A DNA stretch of 64,000 bases from an uncultured Solirubrobacteraceae bacterium. GTDB lineage: Bacteria > Actinomycetota > Thermoleophilia > Solirubrobacterales > Solirubrobacteraceae. The notes beneath the pieces were generated by a model. It made no database searches and was not told the DNA's origin. It saw only the letters and a list, made by a program, of their open reading frames with translations. Below, piece after piece: positions 49,667 to 54,774 of this stretch. Where the stretch lies: contig CAVXZC010000012.1 in the NCBI GenBank assembly GCA_963766165.1, positions 594,607 to 658,606 on the forward strand, in the 5' to 3' direction. The position numbers and the translations under genes were made by a program. Numbering within the stretch: position 1 is the first letter of the stretch; each line of letters opens with the position of its first letter.

Positions 49667-51171
49667 TCAGGCTTCCCGCTGCGCGGCGGCCACCCGCAGC
49701 TCGGCTCCGGCCGCGTCCGTGGGGCGGTCGACGCCGGCCATGATCCGGTCGATGTCGGCGCGCTCGAGCACCTCCTGGTGCAACAGCGCGGCGGCCAGCG
49801 CATCGAGCAGCTCGCGGTGCGCGGTGAGCAGCCGGGCGGCGCGCCGCATCGCCTCGTCGGCGAGATGCTGTTGCTCGGCGTCGCGCAGCTCGCGCGTCCG
49901 GTCCGAGACGGCGCCGCCCTCGGACGCGAGCTGGAGCGCGCTCACGGACGTGCCCATCGCCCACTCGTGGATCATCGCCCGCGAGATCGTCGGCCACCCG
50001 CTTGAGGTCGCCGGCCGCGCCCGTGGTGATGCTGCCGAAGACGATCTGCTCGGCGGCGCGGCCGCCGAGCAGGAGGTCATCTCGTCGAGCAGCTCCTCGC
50101 GCGTCTTCAGGTTGCGGTCCTCGTCGGGCAGGTGCAGCGTGTAGCCGAGCGCGTTGCCGCGGGGGATGATCGAGATCCGGTGGGCCCGGTCCACGCCGGG
50201 CAGGAGCTCGCCGCACAGCGCGTGCGCCGGCCTCGTGGTAGGCGACGACGCGCCGCTCGTGGTCGCTCAGCGCGCGGCGCGACTGCATGCCGGCGATCGA
50301 CGCGCTCGAGGGCGTAGTCGAAGTCCTCCTGCGGCAGGTCGTGCGCCGGCCGCGCGCCGCGGGGATCGCCGCCTCGTTGGCGATGTTGGCCAGGTCGGCG
50401 CCGGTCAGCCCGGCCGTCTGGCGGGCCAGGAGCCGGAGGTTGACGTCGCCGCCGAGCGGCTTGTTCGACGTGTGCACGCGCAGGATCGCCTCGCGGCCGG
50501 TCACGTCGGGGGGCGAGACGAAGATCTGGCGGTCGAACCGGCCGGGGCGCAGCAGCGCCGGGTCGAGCTTCTCGAGCAGGTTCGAGGCGGCGATCACGAC
50601 ACGAGGTCGCCGGTCGACCCGAAGCCGTCCATCTCGACCAGCAGCTGGTTGAGCGTCTGCTCGCGCTCGGAGTTGTTGTCCGAGCCGCGGCGCGCGCCGA
50701 CGGCGTCGATCTCGTCGATGAAGATGATCGCCGGCGCGGTGCTTGCGCGCCTCGTTGAACAGGCGCCGGATGCGGGCGGCCCCGAGGCCGGCGAACATCT
50801 CCACGAACGACGAGGCCGACTGGGAGAAGAACTGCGCGCCGGACTCGTGGGCCACCGCCTTGGCCAGCAGCGTCTTGCCGGTGCCGGGCGGGCCGTGCAG
50901 CAGGATGCCCTTGGGCACCTTCGCGCCGAGCTCGGTGAAGTGCTTCGGGTCGCGCAGGAAGTCCACGACCTCCTGCAGCTCGGCCTTGGCCTCGTCGGCG
51001 CCGGCCACCTCGACCAGCCGATCGACGACGCCGAGTCCGGCGTGATCTCCTGCGGCTTGGTCTTGCGGCATCAGCTTCAGCGTGCGCCAGAGGAAGAAGA
51101 CGATCAGGCCCATGAAGATGATCGGGCCCCAGTTGTGAGAGGAAGCTCGTGATGTGATCCCAGACGGTCAT
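49667..51171 (-). pseudogene. ftsH: FtsH-like AAA+ zinc metalloprotease lacking the periplasmic domain; at least 4 apparent frameshifts
   Basis: Walker [24 protein letters not shown] zinc motif, C-terminal helical domain in four track ORFs. N-terminal frameshift coincides with a GGGG run near 51136. Confidence 0.75.
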
Positions 51172-51193
51172 TCGGACGCCCAGTATCGCGGCG

Positions 51194-51976
51194 TCAGCCT
51201 GGGGTTGGAGACCCCGTTCTCGACCCGCAGGATCTCGGCAGGGCGGCGCGGCCGACCTCGAGCTGGTCCTCGTCGGGCTCGCGCGTGCCGAAGAGCCGCT
51301 GGATCTCGTAGCCCGGGCGCTTGAGGGCGCGGGCGGCGGGCGAGTCCGGCGTGGCGCTCGGTCCAGGCGAACACCTCGACGCGCCGCGGCCGACCGACGC
51401 CAGCGAGACCGCGCCCGTGGCCAGCGGCGCCGGGCCGCTCGAGCACCCGCTTGCAGCAGCGACCGCGCCGGCGAGGTTGGCGACGAGCATCGGCGCCATC
51501 AGGTGCGAGCCGCAGCGGTCGTGCTCCTTCGGCGCGTCGGCCGCGTCCGTCGGCGCCGGCTCGTAGGCGCCGATCGCCTTGTGCTCGACGCCGTGGTAGG
51601 CGGCCAGCTCGCCGTCGCGCAGCGCGAACAGCGCCGGGGCCAGCGAGACGACTGCGAGCGCCGGCCTCGCCGGCCACGCCGCGCGTGCGCCGAGCAGCCG
51701 GCCCGCGAGCGCCGGCCGCGGCGCGACGCCCATCGCACCGCACGGCGAGTCCTCGAACGGCAGGCGCGCCTCCGGCAGCGCGCGCCTGACGAGCGGGATG
51801 ACCGCGAACGCCTCGGCCAGCCGGAGCGAGGCCGCGCACGCCAGCGGCACGCGCGTCGAGCGGCCTCGCAGGCGCGGCTTGGGGCCCGAGGCGACTTCAC
51901 GGTGCCGTCGCGGCGCGCGCACGGCCGCCGCCCAGTGCGTCGGGCCGTGGACGAGCAGGCCGTTGCGCAGCGCCAT
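51194..51976 (-). CDS. DUF1385-family (YqhQ-like) protein; N-terminus possibly frameshifted
   Basis: LRLGGMALRNGLLVHGPTHWAAAVR...HGVEHKAIGAYE...KEHDRCGSHLM. Confidence 0.65.
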   Translation of the reverse strand: MALRNGLLVHGPTHWAAAVRAPRRHREVASGPKPRLRGRSTRVPLACAASLRLAEAFAVIPLVRRALPEARLPFEDSPCGAMGVAPRPALAGRLLGARAAWPARPALAVVSLAPALFALRDGELAAYHGVEHKAIGAYEPAPTDAADAPKEHDRCGSHLMAPMLVANLAGAVAAASGCSSGPAPLATGAVSLASVGRGASRCSPGPSATPDSPAARALKRPGYEIQRLFGTREPDEDQLEVGRAALPRSCGSRTGSPTPG

Positions 51977-51999
51977 CCCGCCGAGGCGCAGCTTGTCCT

Positions 52000-53415
52000 T
52001 CGGGCACCGGCATCAGTCGAGCAGCCTCCTCGGACGAGGTCGTGGATAGAAGCGCGCCGCGAACCCGAGGTCGCGCACGTCGATGCGCTCGTCGGCGCTG
52101 TGCATCGAGCGGCGACGTCTCGTAGCAGCGTCTGGTGGCGCTGGGGGAAGAAGCCGTAGGCCGACGCAGTCCGGGAAGCGCGTCGCGGAACCAGCGGCTG
52201 TCGGTGAACCCGGCAGGACGATCGGCACCAGGCTCGCGCCCGGGTCGTGCTCGGCGATCCAGCCGCGCGATCGCCGTCCATGAGCGGCGAGTCGACCGGC
52301 GAGCGGTTGCCGACGACGTGCCTCCGGTGAACTCGACGCTCGCAGCCCCGTCCGCGTCCGCCGAGCACCTCGCTGCGATCGCCGCGGCTGAGCGCGACGT
52401 CCTCCTCCATGCCCGGGCGGCACGCGGCAGTCGACGCGCGAGCTCCGCGCGCGACGGGATCACGTTGATCTTCTCCGAGGCGACAGATGCGCGTCGGCGC
52501 GAGCGTGACGCCGAGCATCGGCTCGACGAGCGACGCGCCAGGCGCGGGCTCCGCGCTCGCGCACGCGCGTCGAGCGCCGCCGCGGGGTCGCGCGTCGATC
52601 GTCCAGGCCGAGCGCGGCCAGCGCGCGCGCGGCGTCTCGGTCAGGTCGTAGCGCCGGCGGCGCTCGCCGAGCGCCCGCACGAAGCGGCGCCAGCTTGAGC
52701 AGCGCGTTGTCGCCGAGCGCCGGCATCGAGGCGTGGCCGGCGCCGGCCGTCGGTGCGCACGCGGGAAGCGGAAGACGCCCTTCTCGGCGACGCACACGCC
52801 GTAGAGGCGCCGCCCGTCGAACGGGAAGACCGCGCCGCCGCCCTCGTTGAGCAGCGTAGTCGCACCGCGACGCGTCCGGGTGCTCCTCGGTCGAGCCACT
52901 GCGCGCCCTCGCCGCCGCCCGTCTCCTCGTCGGCCGACGCGACGACGAGCAGCTCGCCGTGCGCCGGGCGCCAGCCCGCGCGCGCGCCAGGGCCAGCCGG
53001 CGGCGCGCCACCTCGGCCGCCGTCTGGGACTTCATGTCCATGCGCGCCGCGGCCCCAGAGCTCGCCGTCCACGACGTCGCCCGACCCACGGGTCGAAGCT
53101 CCACTCCGACGGCGTCGGCGAGCACCGTGTCGACGTGGCGAGAGCAGGCACAGGGTCGGCCCGGGCTCGCCTCGCCGCGCAGGCGCGCGACGAGGTTCGG
53201 GCGCTCCGGCTCGTGCGGCCGAGCAGCTCGCACGTCGAAGCCGGCGTCGCGTCGAGCATGCCGGCGAGCTGCTCCTGGGCCGGCCGCTCGTTGCCCGGCG
53301 GGTTGACGGTGTTGAAGCGGACGAGCCGCTGCAGCAGCTCGGCGGTCTCGCGCCTCGGAGGTCCGTCGGCCATCGCGCCCATGGCTACGGCGCGGCTAGT
53401 CGGGCCGTCGCTCAC
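52000..53415 (-). pseudogene. Peptidase M20 family (ArgE/DapE/CPG2-like); at least 4 frameshifts
   Basis: LLQRLVRFNTVNPPGNE, PNLVARLRGE...SHVDTV, GELWGRGA, SADEETGG, HASMPALGDNALLKLAPL in four different frames. Confidence 0.65.
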
Positions 53416-53443
53416 CGGCGACGCGCGTCAGGACTGTGGATCC

Positions 53444-54774
53444 ATGAGCGCGCTGTTCGACACCGGCGAGCCGAGCCGCGGCCGCGCGCCGGCCGCCGCC
53501 GAGCGACGCGCCGCTGGCCGCGCGGATGCGGCCGCGCATCGCTCGACGAGCTCGTGGGCCAGGAGCACCTGCTCGGCCGAGGGCTCGGCGCTGCGCAGCG
53601 GCGATCGAGCCGGGCGAGCCGCACTCGATGATCCTCTACGGCCCGCCCGGGCTCGGGCAAGACGACGCTGGCGCGGATCATGGCCGCGCCGCCGACGCGG
53701 CGTTCGAGGAGCTGTCGGCGCGTCGAGGCCGGCCGGGCCGAGGTGCGCGAGGTGATCGAGCGCGCGCGGGAGCGCCGCCGCGCCGGCCGCCAGCCGACGA
53801 TCTTCTTCCTCGACGAGATCCACCGCTTCAACAAGGCCCAGCAGGACGCGCTGCTGCCGGCGGTCGAGGAGGGGCTCGTCGACGCTGATCGGCGCGACGA
53901 CCGAGAACCCGTACTTCGAGGTCAACTCCGCGCTGCTCTCGCGCGCGCAGATCTACGAGCTGCAGCGCGCTGACTGGCCGCGGACATCGCCGGCTCGTTC
54001 TGCGGCGCGCGCTGGAGGACGCGTCGGCGCCGACGCCGTCCGACGAGGCGGTCGAGTTCCTGGCCGCGCGCTCCGGCGGCGACGCGCGCACGGCGCTGCG
54101 ACGCGCTCGAGCTCGCGGTCGAGACGGCCGCCCGGACCGGCCGGCCGGTCGACGCTGAGCCGACGCCGAGGACGCCATGCAGCGCAAGGCGCTGCGCTAC
54201 GACAAGGCCGGCGACCAGCACTACGACTACATCTCGGCCTGGATCAAGTCGACGCGCGGCTCGGACCCGGACGCGTCGCTCTACTACCTGGCGGCGATGC
54301 TCGAGGGCGGCGAGGACCCGCGCTTCATCGCCCGGCGGATGGTCGATCCTGGCCTCCGAGGACATCGGCAACGCCGACCCGCGGGCGCTGCAGATCGCGG
54401 TGGCCGCCGCGCACGCGGTCGAGCACGTCGGGATGCCGGAGTGCACGTTCGCGCTCGCCCAGGCCGCGATCTACCTGTCGCTGGCGCCGAAGTCCGAACG
54501 CGGCCGGCCACGCGCTCGGCGCCGCGCGCGGGCACATCCGCGAGCACGGCGCCCAGCTGCCGCCCGCCGCGCTGCGCTCGGCCGCCTACCCGGGCGCGCG
54601 CTAGCTGGGCCGCGGCGGCGGCTACGACTACCCGCACGACGATCCCGGCCACGTCAACGACCAGGAGCACCTGCCGCCGGCCGTGGTCGACGAGCGCTTC
54701 TACGACCCCGGCGACGGCGAGCCGGCGCTGCGGGAGCGGCTGGCGGAGATCCGGCGGGCGCGCGGCCGTGGATG
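53444..54774 (+). pseudogene. rarA: Recombination factor RarA/MgsA (AAA+ ATPase); several frameshifts plus an in-frame TAG at 54601-54603
   Basis: [47 protein letters not shown], MgsA_C blocks [22 protein letters not shown] and [20 protein letters not shown]. Confidence 0.75.

Follow-up and report, generated by a model that had tools for sequence, protein, structure and literature searches.

A dense block of frame-breaking indels in a Solirubrobacteraceae contig very probably reflects poor consensus sequence

Introduction

Are four neighbouring genes that are broken back to back by frameshifts in the course of decay, or are they intact genes that have been written down badly? The question arises in a contig of an uncultured Solirubrobacteraceae bacterium, of which a stretch of 64,000 nucleotides (the window) was analysed. 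An ftsH-like gene, a DUF1385 gene, a gene for a M20/M25/M40 peptidase (M20 in the following) and rarA/mgsA lie side by side in it, and their reading frames are fragmented (block 2, Table 1). A first, sequence-only reading had suggested an error-prone assembly, possibly mixed with real pseudogenes. Gene-fragmenting consensus indels, which become worse at low coverage, have been documented for long-read assemblies (PMC9262707; PMC12007338). Judged from the DNA and its relatives, block 2 is very probably poor consensus sequence, that is, a sequencing or assembly artefact and not a biological feature.

Results

Extent and density of the frame-breaking indels

Frameshift-aware protein-to-DNA alignment together with alignments to the DNA of intact orthologues placed about 71 frame-breaking indels in block 2. 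Plain tblastn could not be used when composition was left uncorrected, since it gives off-frame Ala/Arg-rich matches throughout this DNA of 75% GC, and our own frameshift-aware dynamic programming was used instead. The ftsH-like gene, M20 and rarA had been described as broken back to back, with at least four, at least four and several frameshifts, respectively. The cluster is real and includes DUF1385, but its shifts had been badly undercounted (Table 1); the count for M20 varies between 24 and 29 with the alignment penalty. From about one indel per 150 bp in ftsH the density climbs to about one per 50 bp over DUF1385 and M20, and in the 3' portion of rarA it declines once more. The block begins within ftsH, ends within rarA and covers genes of both strands, and its flanks of 2.1 kb and 2.8 kb contain no indel at all (P ~1e-14 and ~1e-20 at the rate of the block). 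This rate is about 100 times that of the rest of the window, where isolated events, roughly counted at about eight, amount to a background of one indel in about 6.5 kb.

Table 1. Positions of the indel-dense blocks, the affected genes and single sites in the window.
Feature	Position	Strand	Remarks
Indel-dense block 1	18,852-25,986	both	~7.1 kb; 50 frame-breaking indels, 43 of them single-base insertions; eight genes (M19 dipeptidase, PolX, GT2 glycosyltransferase, SpoIIM-like, thioredoxin, Abhydrolase_2, glyoxalase-fold protein, MatE)
Flotillin, frame change	~32,503
SpoIID, shifts	40,447; 40,731; 40,915
FEN, shift	43,516
ychF, shift	46,209
ftsH-like gene (short form, 499 aa)	49,670-51,171	-	10 indels: six 1-nt insertions, one 2-nt insertion, three 1-nt deletions
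Indel-dense block 2	49,993-54,496	both	one frame-breaking indel per 64 bp
G4 run in ftsH	51,127-51,130		in TGGGGCCC (Trp-Gly-Pro)
Extra base, N-terminal ftsH shift	~51,136-51,138	-	CTCT[C]ACAAC on the gene strand
DUF1385 gene	51,197-52,013	-	~15 frame-breaking indels
M20/M25/M40 peptidase gene	52,022-53,382	-	~28 frame-breaking indels
rarA/mgsA	53,444-54,772	+	~18 frame-breaking indels and one stop
In-frame TAG in rarA	54,602-54,604	+	TCG (Ser) in L002 and L004; GCG/GCC (Ala) in L005 and L006
Proline racemase, shift	~61,377

A GC3 frame plot with Viterbi segmentation showed repeated frame switches only in block 2 and at about 18.9-25.5 kb, the region of block 1. Inside each in-frame piece of ftsH and rarA, GC3 is 0.95-1.0; it is lower in M20, where the shifts are spaced more closely than the 120-nt window of the plot. 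In both blocks the indel density is highest centrally and tapers outward. The stitched products of block 1 are 86-95% identical to their orthologues in the related contig L095, which is the range of the clean neighbours of that block. A search for other properties that could set the blocks apart gave little: GC content does not explain them (74-77% in the blocks, up to 80% in clean neighbours), the only repeats bounding block 2 are chance GC-rich matches and the Walker-B region common to the two AAA genes, and the whole window is without an Rfam match.

The stitched proteins are full length and conserved

When the frames are joined across the indels, all four genes of block 2 yield full-length proteins. 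The FtsH-like product has complete Pfam domains (AAA 1-130 of 131, AAA_lid_3 1-44 of 45, Peptidase_M41 2-191 of 191) and keeps the YHEAGHAL motif with the HEAGH zinc motif, which spans one of the shifts. RarA contains AAA, AAA_assoc_2 and MgsA_C in this order, the latter from 1 to 162 of 167, and M20 retains the conserved blocks HVDTVLA, DEETGG, AGHAS, NRSPVDSPLMD and HSADERIDVRDL. Identity to intact orthologues is 88.7% for the FtsH-like protein and 77.7% for DUF1385 (both against L001) and 81.8% for RarA (against L002); M20 shares 75% of its residues with a consensus built from 112 homologues. Clean neighbours are in the same range (EAL 89%, PAP2 90%, DAO 81%).

A scan of genome contigs with the neighbouring EAL protein gave relatives at up to 80% identity, which served as references; a scan of metagenome contigs with the stitched RarA revealed no closer reference among the matches listed, these being distant (up to 69% identity). 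In the genome of the isolate Ca. Solirubrobacter pratensis (L006), as well as in most metagenome-assembled genomes (MAGs), each of the four genes is recovered as one full-length match, and the orthologues in the JGI contigs L001 and L095 are intact as well. Sporadic frameshifts in M20 and rarA were observed in four relatives, and all seven of the unique ones are +1 insertions of G or C. Three of these loci (L007, L009 and L010) belong to MFD MAGs, which are Nanopore-only assemblies made with Flye plus Medaka (PMC12313526); the fourth (L003) lies on a metagenome contig from ENA that is named in the style of Flye and whose pipeline we infer.

Indels without the substitutions of decay

If the segment were decaying, with four neighbouring genes inactivated and intact copies perhaps located elsewhere in the genome, the frameshifts and the nonsense codon, which are truly present in the deposited sequence, would be accounted for. 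Neutral decay that fixes 70 indels in bacterial pseudogenes should, however, bring several hundred substitutions and many stops, and these were not found. Despite its ten indels, the FtsH-like product is changed at only 1 of the 260 sites that are invariant in all relatives, and RarA at 7 of 246, which is within the relatives' own range. The numbers of substitutions specific to the window and to its sister are similar in FtsH (63 and 57), DUF1385 (55 and 49) and RarA (81 and 83), and in FtsH the bias to third codon positions is equal on both branches. Taken together, branch counts and invariant sites show that the 43 indels in these three genes came with essentially no extra substitutions in total, and thus the clear substitution excess that relaxed selection would leave is missing. 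Slightly in favour of decay are changes at otherwise invariant sites, which are more frequent in M20 (24 of 204) and DUF1385 (9 of 129), and a tilt of the window-specific changes in RarA to codon positions 1 and 2 (45, compared to 27 in the sister). Both may plausibly come from out-of-frame or misaligned stretches between close indels. The preserved GC3 in the in-frame pieces of ftsH and rarA (lower in M20), block borders that lie inside genes and ignore the strand, and the presence of a second block that breaks eight more unrelated genes, thioredoxin and PolX among them, argue further against pseudogenes.

Most of the indels are insertions: 75 single-base insertions compare with 12 single-base deletions (p ~1e-12). 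Among the indels of one base, about 85% are +1 insertions, and block 2 contains no deletion that exceeds 4 nt. Bacterial mutation is reportedly deletion-biased, a finding attributed to Mira, Ochman and Moran (2001); the insertion excess is the opposite of this and likewise not what genuine pseudogenes would show.

Sequence context of the insertions

The stray bases are mostly single G or C. Sequencing platforms that misjudge the length of homopolymers (454, Ion Torrent, older Nanopore) would be one candidate source of one-base errors, and comparison with homopolymer runs had been proposed. A few events indeed alter short runs, for instance a TCC-to-TC deletion at ~51,014 and GG[C]CG at 49,993. 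The context counts contradict this candidate, since only 15 of the 75 insertions (20%) adjoin an identical base while 54% would be expected (p ~1e-9), none of the placed insertions has the form X[X]X, and no run of more than 3 nt was created. In addition, the N-terminal ftsH shift, which had been ascribed to a GGGG run, is located elsewhere: the G4 run in TGGGGCCC is identical in L001 and L002 and is genuine, whereas the surplus base is found 6-8 nt upstream of it. Classical homopolymer miscalls are therefore extremely improbable as the source of block 2.

The context that prevails instead is C[G]C or G[C]G, found for 26 of the 75 insertions against 7% expected (p ~4e-12), and in 60 of the 75 the inserted base differs from both neighbours. 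Such a non-homopolymer signature is not the textbook one and has to be counted against an artefact. That the inserted base mostly differs from its neighbours would suit a collapsed mixture of two strains about 1.5% apart, in which both alleles of a SNP were kept in tandem and appear as +1 insertions. Alleles seem to stand side by side in places such as CC[G]C in a Pro codon or A[T]CG in place of an ACG of the orthologue, and the density of events is likewise about 1.5%, a typical within-species divergence. SNPs between close strains are mostly found at third codon positions, and the insertions should therefore avoid the slot between positions 1 and 2; the slots are filled evenly, however, with 11/10/11 insertions for block 2 and 18/12/13 for block 1, and a mixture would not predict that C[G]C and G[C]G are strongly preferred. 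We regard merged strains as a highly doubtful explanation, which, if true, would still make the block an artefact and not biology.

The non-random context, combined with a conserved underlying coding sequence, would also be in line with extra bases that are real and tolerated, either by recoding or editing of the transcript or because insertional mutagenesis of a context-specific kind had acted locally. What speaks against this is that some 70 shifts lie within 4.5 kb without recoding signals, show no regard for strand or codon position and begin and end within genes; the orthologues, moreover, require no correction in any of the relatives. Base-deletion RNA editing is not known in bacteria. 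There is thus hardly any chance that these bases are real and tolerated. Equally hard to believe are the forms that this would have to take, two kilobase-scale patches with very recent, localised C[G]C/G[C]G insertional mutagenesis or a novel correction step at the level of expression; the mutagenesis would have left no substitutions and would have affected essential-looking genes.

The in-frame stop in rarA

An in-frame TAG in rarA, already seen in the sequence-only reading, exists, although it lies one base further downstream than had been given. The closest orthologues carry TCG at this site and the TAG is therefore a single C-to-A difference. Being a substitution and not an indel, it counts against an artefact made of indels, but most simply it would be a rare substitution error of the same low-quality stretch. 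For the proposed admixture of real pseudogenes we found nothing in support: the only stop is this one, which lies in the noisy block and differs by a single base from the Ser codon of the orthologues.

Discussion

Natural decay of the four genes is very unlikely, because the stitched proteins are conserved over their full length, a clear excess of substitutions is missing, the indels take no account of gene borders, strand or reading frame, and +1 events prevail. The same evidence points to a consensus or polishing step that failed locally. With the lack of a substitution excess in FtsH, DUF1385 and rarA and with orthologues that are intact in an isolate, it also bears out the earlier suggestion of an error-prone assembly. 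We infer a technical cause, connected with the read depth at this place or with polishing. Most likely, a long-read assembly with very low local read depth, or one in which polishing failed, would have placed stray bases, for the most part one inserted G or C at a time, in otherwise intact genes, and in the organism the ftsH-like gene, DUF1385, M20 and rarA would most likely be whole and functional. To account for the block-wise pattern, one has to assume in addition that read depth fell locally or that a patch was left unpolished.

Consensus indels of long-read (Nanopore or PacBio) assemblies resemble block 2 in that single-base indels hit conserved genes without substitutions and become worse at low depth, and M20 and rarA of the related Nanopore-only MAGs carry +1 G/C insertions as well. 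Watson and Warr (2019) are said to have described such indels that fragment genes in long-read assemblies. The resemblance is not complete: published work emphasises homopolymers, whereas here homopolymers are avoided and C[G]C and G[C]G are favoured, and the errors, instead of being spread evenly, are concentrated about 100-fold in blocks of 4.5 kb and 7 kb. In reduced or host-restricted genomes such as those of Mycobacterium leprae and Sodalis, several frameshifts and a premature stop are found in neighbouring genes, as is the case here; in contrast to these, block 2 shows no clear substitution excess, a bias to insertions, no large deletions and a preserved GC3 signal, and it does not respect gene borders. 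The block is also reminiscent of the sequencing frameshifts that FramePlot-type analyses detect in high-GC actinobacteria, in which GC3 periodicity marks the change of frame, as it does in this DNA of about 75% GC. Gel compressions in single-read Sanger sequences stay far below the density and the kilobase length seen here.

Block 2 matters for data hygiene only; on the evidence of sequence comparison, it is almost certainly an artefact to be polished away and not gene decay. The four genes, and the eight of block 1, should be neither annotated nor counted as pseudogenes, and figures for the completeness and coding density of this genome would be depressed by such blocks. For those who build polishers it may be of interest that the errors are concentrated about 100-fold in patches of the size of a read. 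Since the errors are non-homopolymer +1 insertions in C[G]C and G[C]G contexts, homopolymer-aware correction would not remove them; reference-guided repair of frameshifts or re-polishing with accurate reads would.

Outside the two blocks, the smaller isolated shifts that had been listed for ychF, FEN, SpoIID and proline racemase were all located (Table 1); for flotillin only a change of frame was seen.

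Two indel-dense blocks

The GC content is ~75% over the whole window, and the nearest relatives of its genes are found in Solirubrobacteraceae (Thermoleophilia) genomes and soil metagenomes. Third codon positions reach ~97% GC, and the reading frame can therefore be read directly from base composition. In a sliding GC3 plot (49.0-56.5 kb) one frame change follows another from 49.99 to 54.75 kb, and each flank keeps a single frame over 1-2 kb. When the whole window was segmented with a seven-state Viterbi model, two heavily fragmented stretches emerged (~18,865-25,540 and 49,987-54,751), with isolated switches only outside them. 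Their GC content is not unusually high, a search for repeats at their borders gave nothing meaningful, and no part of the window matches an Rfam family.

For the second stretch (block 2), an ftsH-like protein stitched by hand across the frame changes retrieved intact 499-aa proteins with 87% identity. The reference contigs L001 (a JGI soil contig), L002 and L003 (ENA contigs) share the gene order rarA, M20, DUF1385, ftsH-like, glyoxalase, PAP2, ychF, FEN, SpoIID. Their orthologues were compared with the window using a frameshift-tolerant protein-to-DNA aligner written for this analysis, with DNA alignment as a second method. Block 2 runs from 49,993 to 54,496 and contains 71 frame-breaking indels (1 per 64 bp); a frameshift cluster had been recognised here in the sequence-only reading, but the number of shifts was greatly understated. 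The block begins within one gene, finishes within another and covers both strands. Indels are sparsest in ftsH (1 per 150 bp) and most frequent in DUF1385 and M20 (1 per 50 bp), and their density drops once more in the 3' portion of rarA. The coding sequence on either flank (2.1 kb and 2.8 kb) yielded none (P ~1e-14 and 1e-20 if the block 2 rate applied), and later alignments showed only offsetting indel pairs there, within open reading frames.

Frame-breaking indels and related features of the window
Gene	Location	Position	Strand	Indels or shifts	Remarks
M19 dipeptidase	block 1			1	
PolX	block 1			5	
GT2	block 1			7	
SpoIIM-like	block 1			7	
Thioredoxin	block 1			4	
Abhydrolase_2	block 1			9	
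Glyoxalase-fold	block 1			14	
MatE	block 1			3	
'Flotillin'	outside blocks	31,733-32,647	-	frame change ~32,503	Pfam Band_7 matches model positions 73-175 only
SpoIID	outside blocks	40,447, 40,731, 40,915		3	single-base
FEN	outside blocks	43,516		1	single-base, +1 insertion
ychF	outside blocks	46,209		1	single-base, +1 insertion
EAL-domain gene	outside blocks	47,927-49,624		apparent compensating +1/-1 pair, 62 nt apart	48,842-48,904 (alignment to L001); ORF of 565 aa otherwise open
ftsH-like	block 2	49,670-51,171	-	10	stitched protein 88.7% identical to L001 (protein-to-DNA alignment)
DUF1385	block 2		-	9-10 (protein-to-DNA aligner); 15 (DNA alignment)	
M20	block 2		-	28	24-29 depending on penalty, with a profile from 112 homologues
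rarA	block 2		+	14 (protein-to-DNA aligner); ~18 (DNA alignment)	plus one stop
Proline racemase	outside blocks	~61,377		1	single-base

The in-frame TAG reported in rarA exists, one base from where it had been placed, at 54,602-54,604; the L002 and L004 orthologues carry TCG there, and it is therefore a one-base difference. The N-terminal ftsH shift had been assigned, wrongly, to a GGGG run: L001 and L002 both have the very same TGGGGCCC (Trp-Gly-Pro). The proposed repair to GGG would remove a conserved tryptophan. The surplus base lies a few nucleotides upstream of TGGGGCCC, in CTCT[C]ACAAC.

In the first stretch, pieces of PolX, glycosyltransferase, thioredoxin, esterase, glyoxalase-fold and MatE proteins were recognised when the GC3 segments (18.9-26.3 kb) were translated, and intact 577-aa proteins match the PolX stitched by composition at 92% identity. 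Alignment to the syntenic JGI contig L095 located 50 frame-breaking indels, 43 of them single insertions, between 18,852 and 25,986 (block 1). The stitched proteins show 86-95% identity, a range like that of clean neighbours (82-92%), and indel density has a central peak (20.7-24.0 kb) and tapers outward, as in block 2. Two kilobase-sized patches, damaged in the same way and covering twelve genes that are unrelated to each other, indicate a feature of the sequence record and not of selection on the genes.

Origin of the indels

Sequence context was analysed for the 75 single-base insertions from both blocks that could be placed by DNA alignment. The association with homopolymers that was to be checked did not appear: only 15 of the 75 (20%) touch an identical base, compared with 54% expected (p ~1e-9), and none has the form X[X]X. 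Homopolymer miscalling was thus rejected. C[G]C or G[C]G insertions account for 26 (35% versus 7% expected, p ~4e-12), and 32 split an XX dinucleotide (21% expected).

Genes in neutral decay collect several substitutions per indel and show a deletion bias; the changes should then run into the hundreds, with many stops, and most indels should be deletions. The stitched block 2 proteins cover complete Pfam domains, and their similarity to the orthologues is about that of undamaged neighbour genes. Of the alignment columns without variation among the relatives, 1 of 260 (FtsH) and 7 of 246 (RarA) are changed in the window, a level not above that found when the relatives are compared with one another. 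An outgroup was used to assign substitutions to branches: 63 are window-specific and 57 sister-specific in FtsH, 55 and 49 in DUF1385, and 81 and 83 in RarA, and the third-position excess in FtsH is equal on both branches. These counts therefore leave 43 indels in the three genes with essentially no added substitutions overall. Invariant-site changes are higher in M20 (24/204) and DUF1385 (9/129), and at codon positions 1 and 2 RarA has 45 window-specific changes versus 27 in the sister; given a shift every 50-75 bp, this excess likely represents short out-of-frame or misaligned pieces. M20 retains all of its strongly conserved blocks. Together with the 75 single-base insertions against 12 single-base deletions, the lack of added substitutions makes genuine decay very improbable. 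A collapsed strain mixture, likewise an artefact, would keep the two alleles of a polymorphism side by side at each insertion; the insertions are spread evenly over the three codon slots, and we consider this origin highly unlikely too. More exotic readings have a negligible probability. Each of these alternatives is contradicted by at least one test.

In the isolate Ca. Solirubrobacter pratensis URHD0082 each of the four block 2 genes has one full-length match, and likewise in most MAGs. Sporadic frameshifts in M20 or rarA occur in L003, L007, L009 and L010, and all seven unique events are +1 G or C insertions. The latter three are Microflora Danica MAGs, Nanopore-only Flye assemblies with one Medaka round (PMC12313526); the Flye-style name of L003, an ENA metagenome contig, suggests a similar pipeline, and the window may come from one as well. 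According to the developers of the Nanopore-only approach, genes are fragmented by consensus indels, and more polishing is required for bins with less than ~40-fold coverage (PMC9262707). Gene-fragmenting errors in long-read assemblies are recognised, and dedicated repair tools exist (PMC12007338). Low read depth in a long-read assembly would leave a locally poor consensus and, with it, indels in otherwise intact genes. We are confident that the block 2 cluster, real in the record, is such a stretch of poor consensus, probably caused by low depth. In the organism the four genes, ordinary in themselves, are almost certainly whole.

Frameshifts and gene order around the blocks

The background outside the two blocks is roughly one frameshift per 6.5 kb, and the isolated shifts noted earlier in SpoIID, FEN, ychF and proline racemase were found again (see table). 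In the 'flotillin' gene, the N-terminal part that Band_7 lacks is not encoded by the piece upstream of the frame change; a shift, additional damage or the border of a gene may each account for the change. The pair in the EAL gene could be a genuine local difference or two cancelling errors. A DAGK-family gene takes the place of this gene beside ftsH in L002 and L003. ychF is split in L002, and L003 has an M20-DUF1385 fusion call. Within the span of block 1, two small ORFs (24,144-24,988) are clean, and at ~22,510 the window is without the MFS transporter located between Abhydrolase_2 and thioredoxin in L095-L097.

The neighbourhood of rarA / M20, DUF1385 and a short FtsH-like protease (window 49,670-54,772) is kept in nearly all fetched Solirubrobacteraceae loci (L001-L013). 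The protease (~499 aa) has a hydrophobic N-terminal stretch followed directly by the AAA and M41 domains, and its pairing with DUF1385 may merit attention in its own right.
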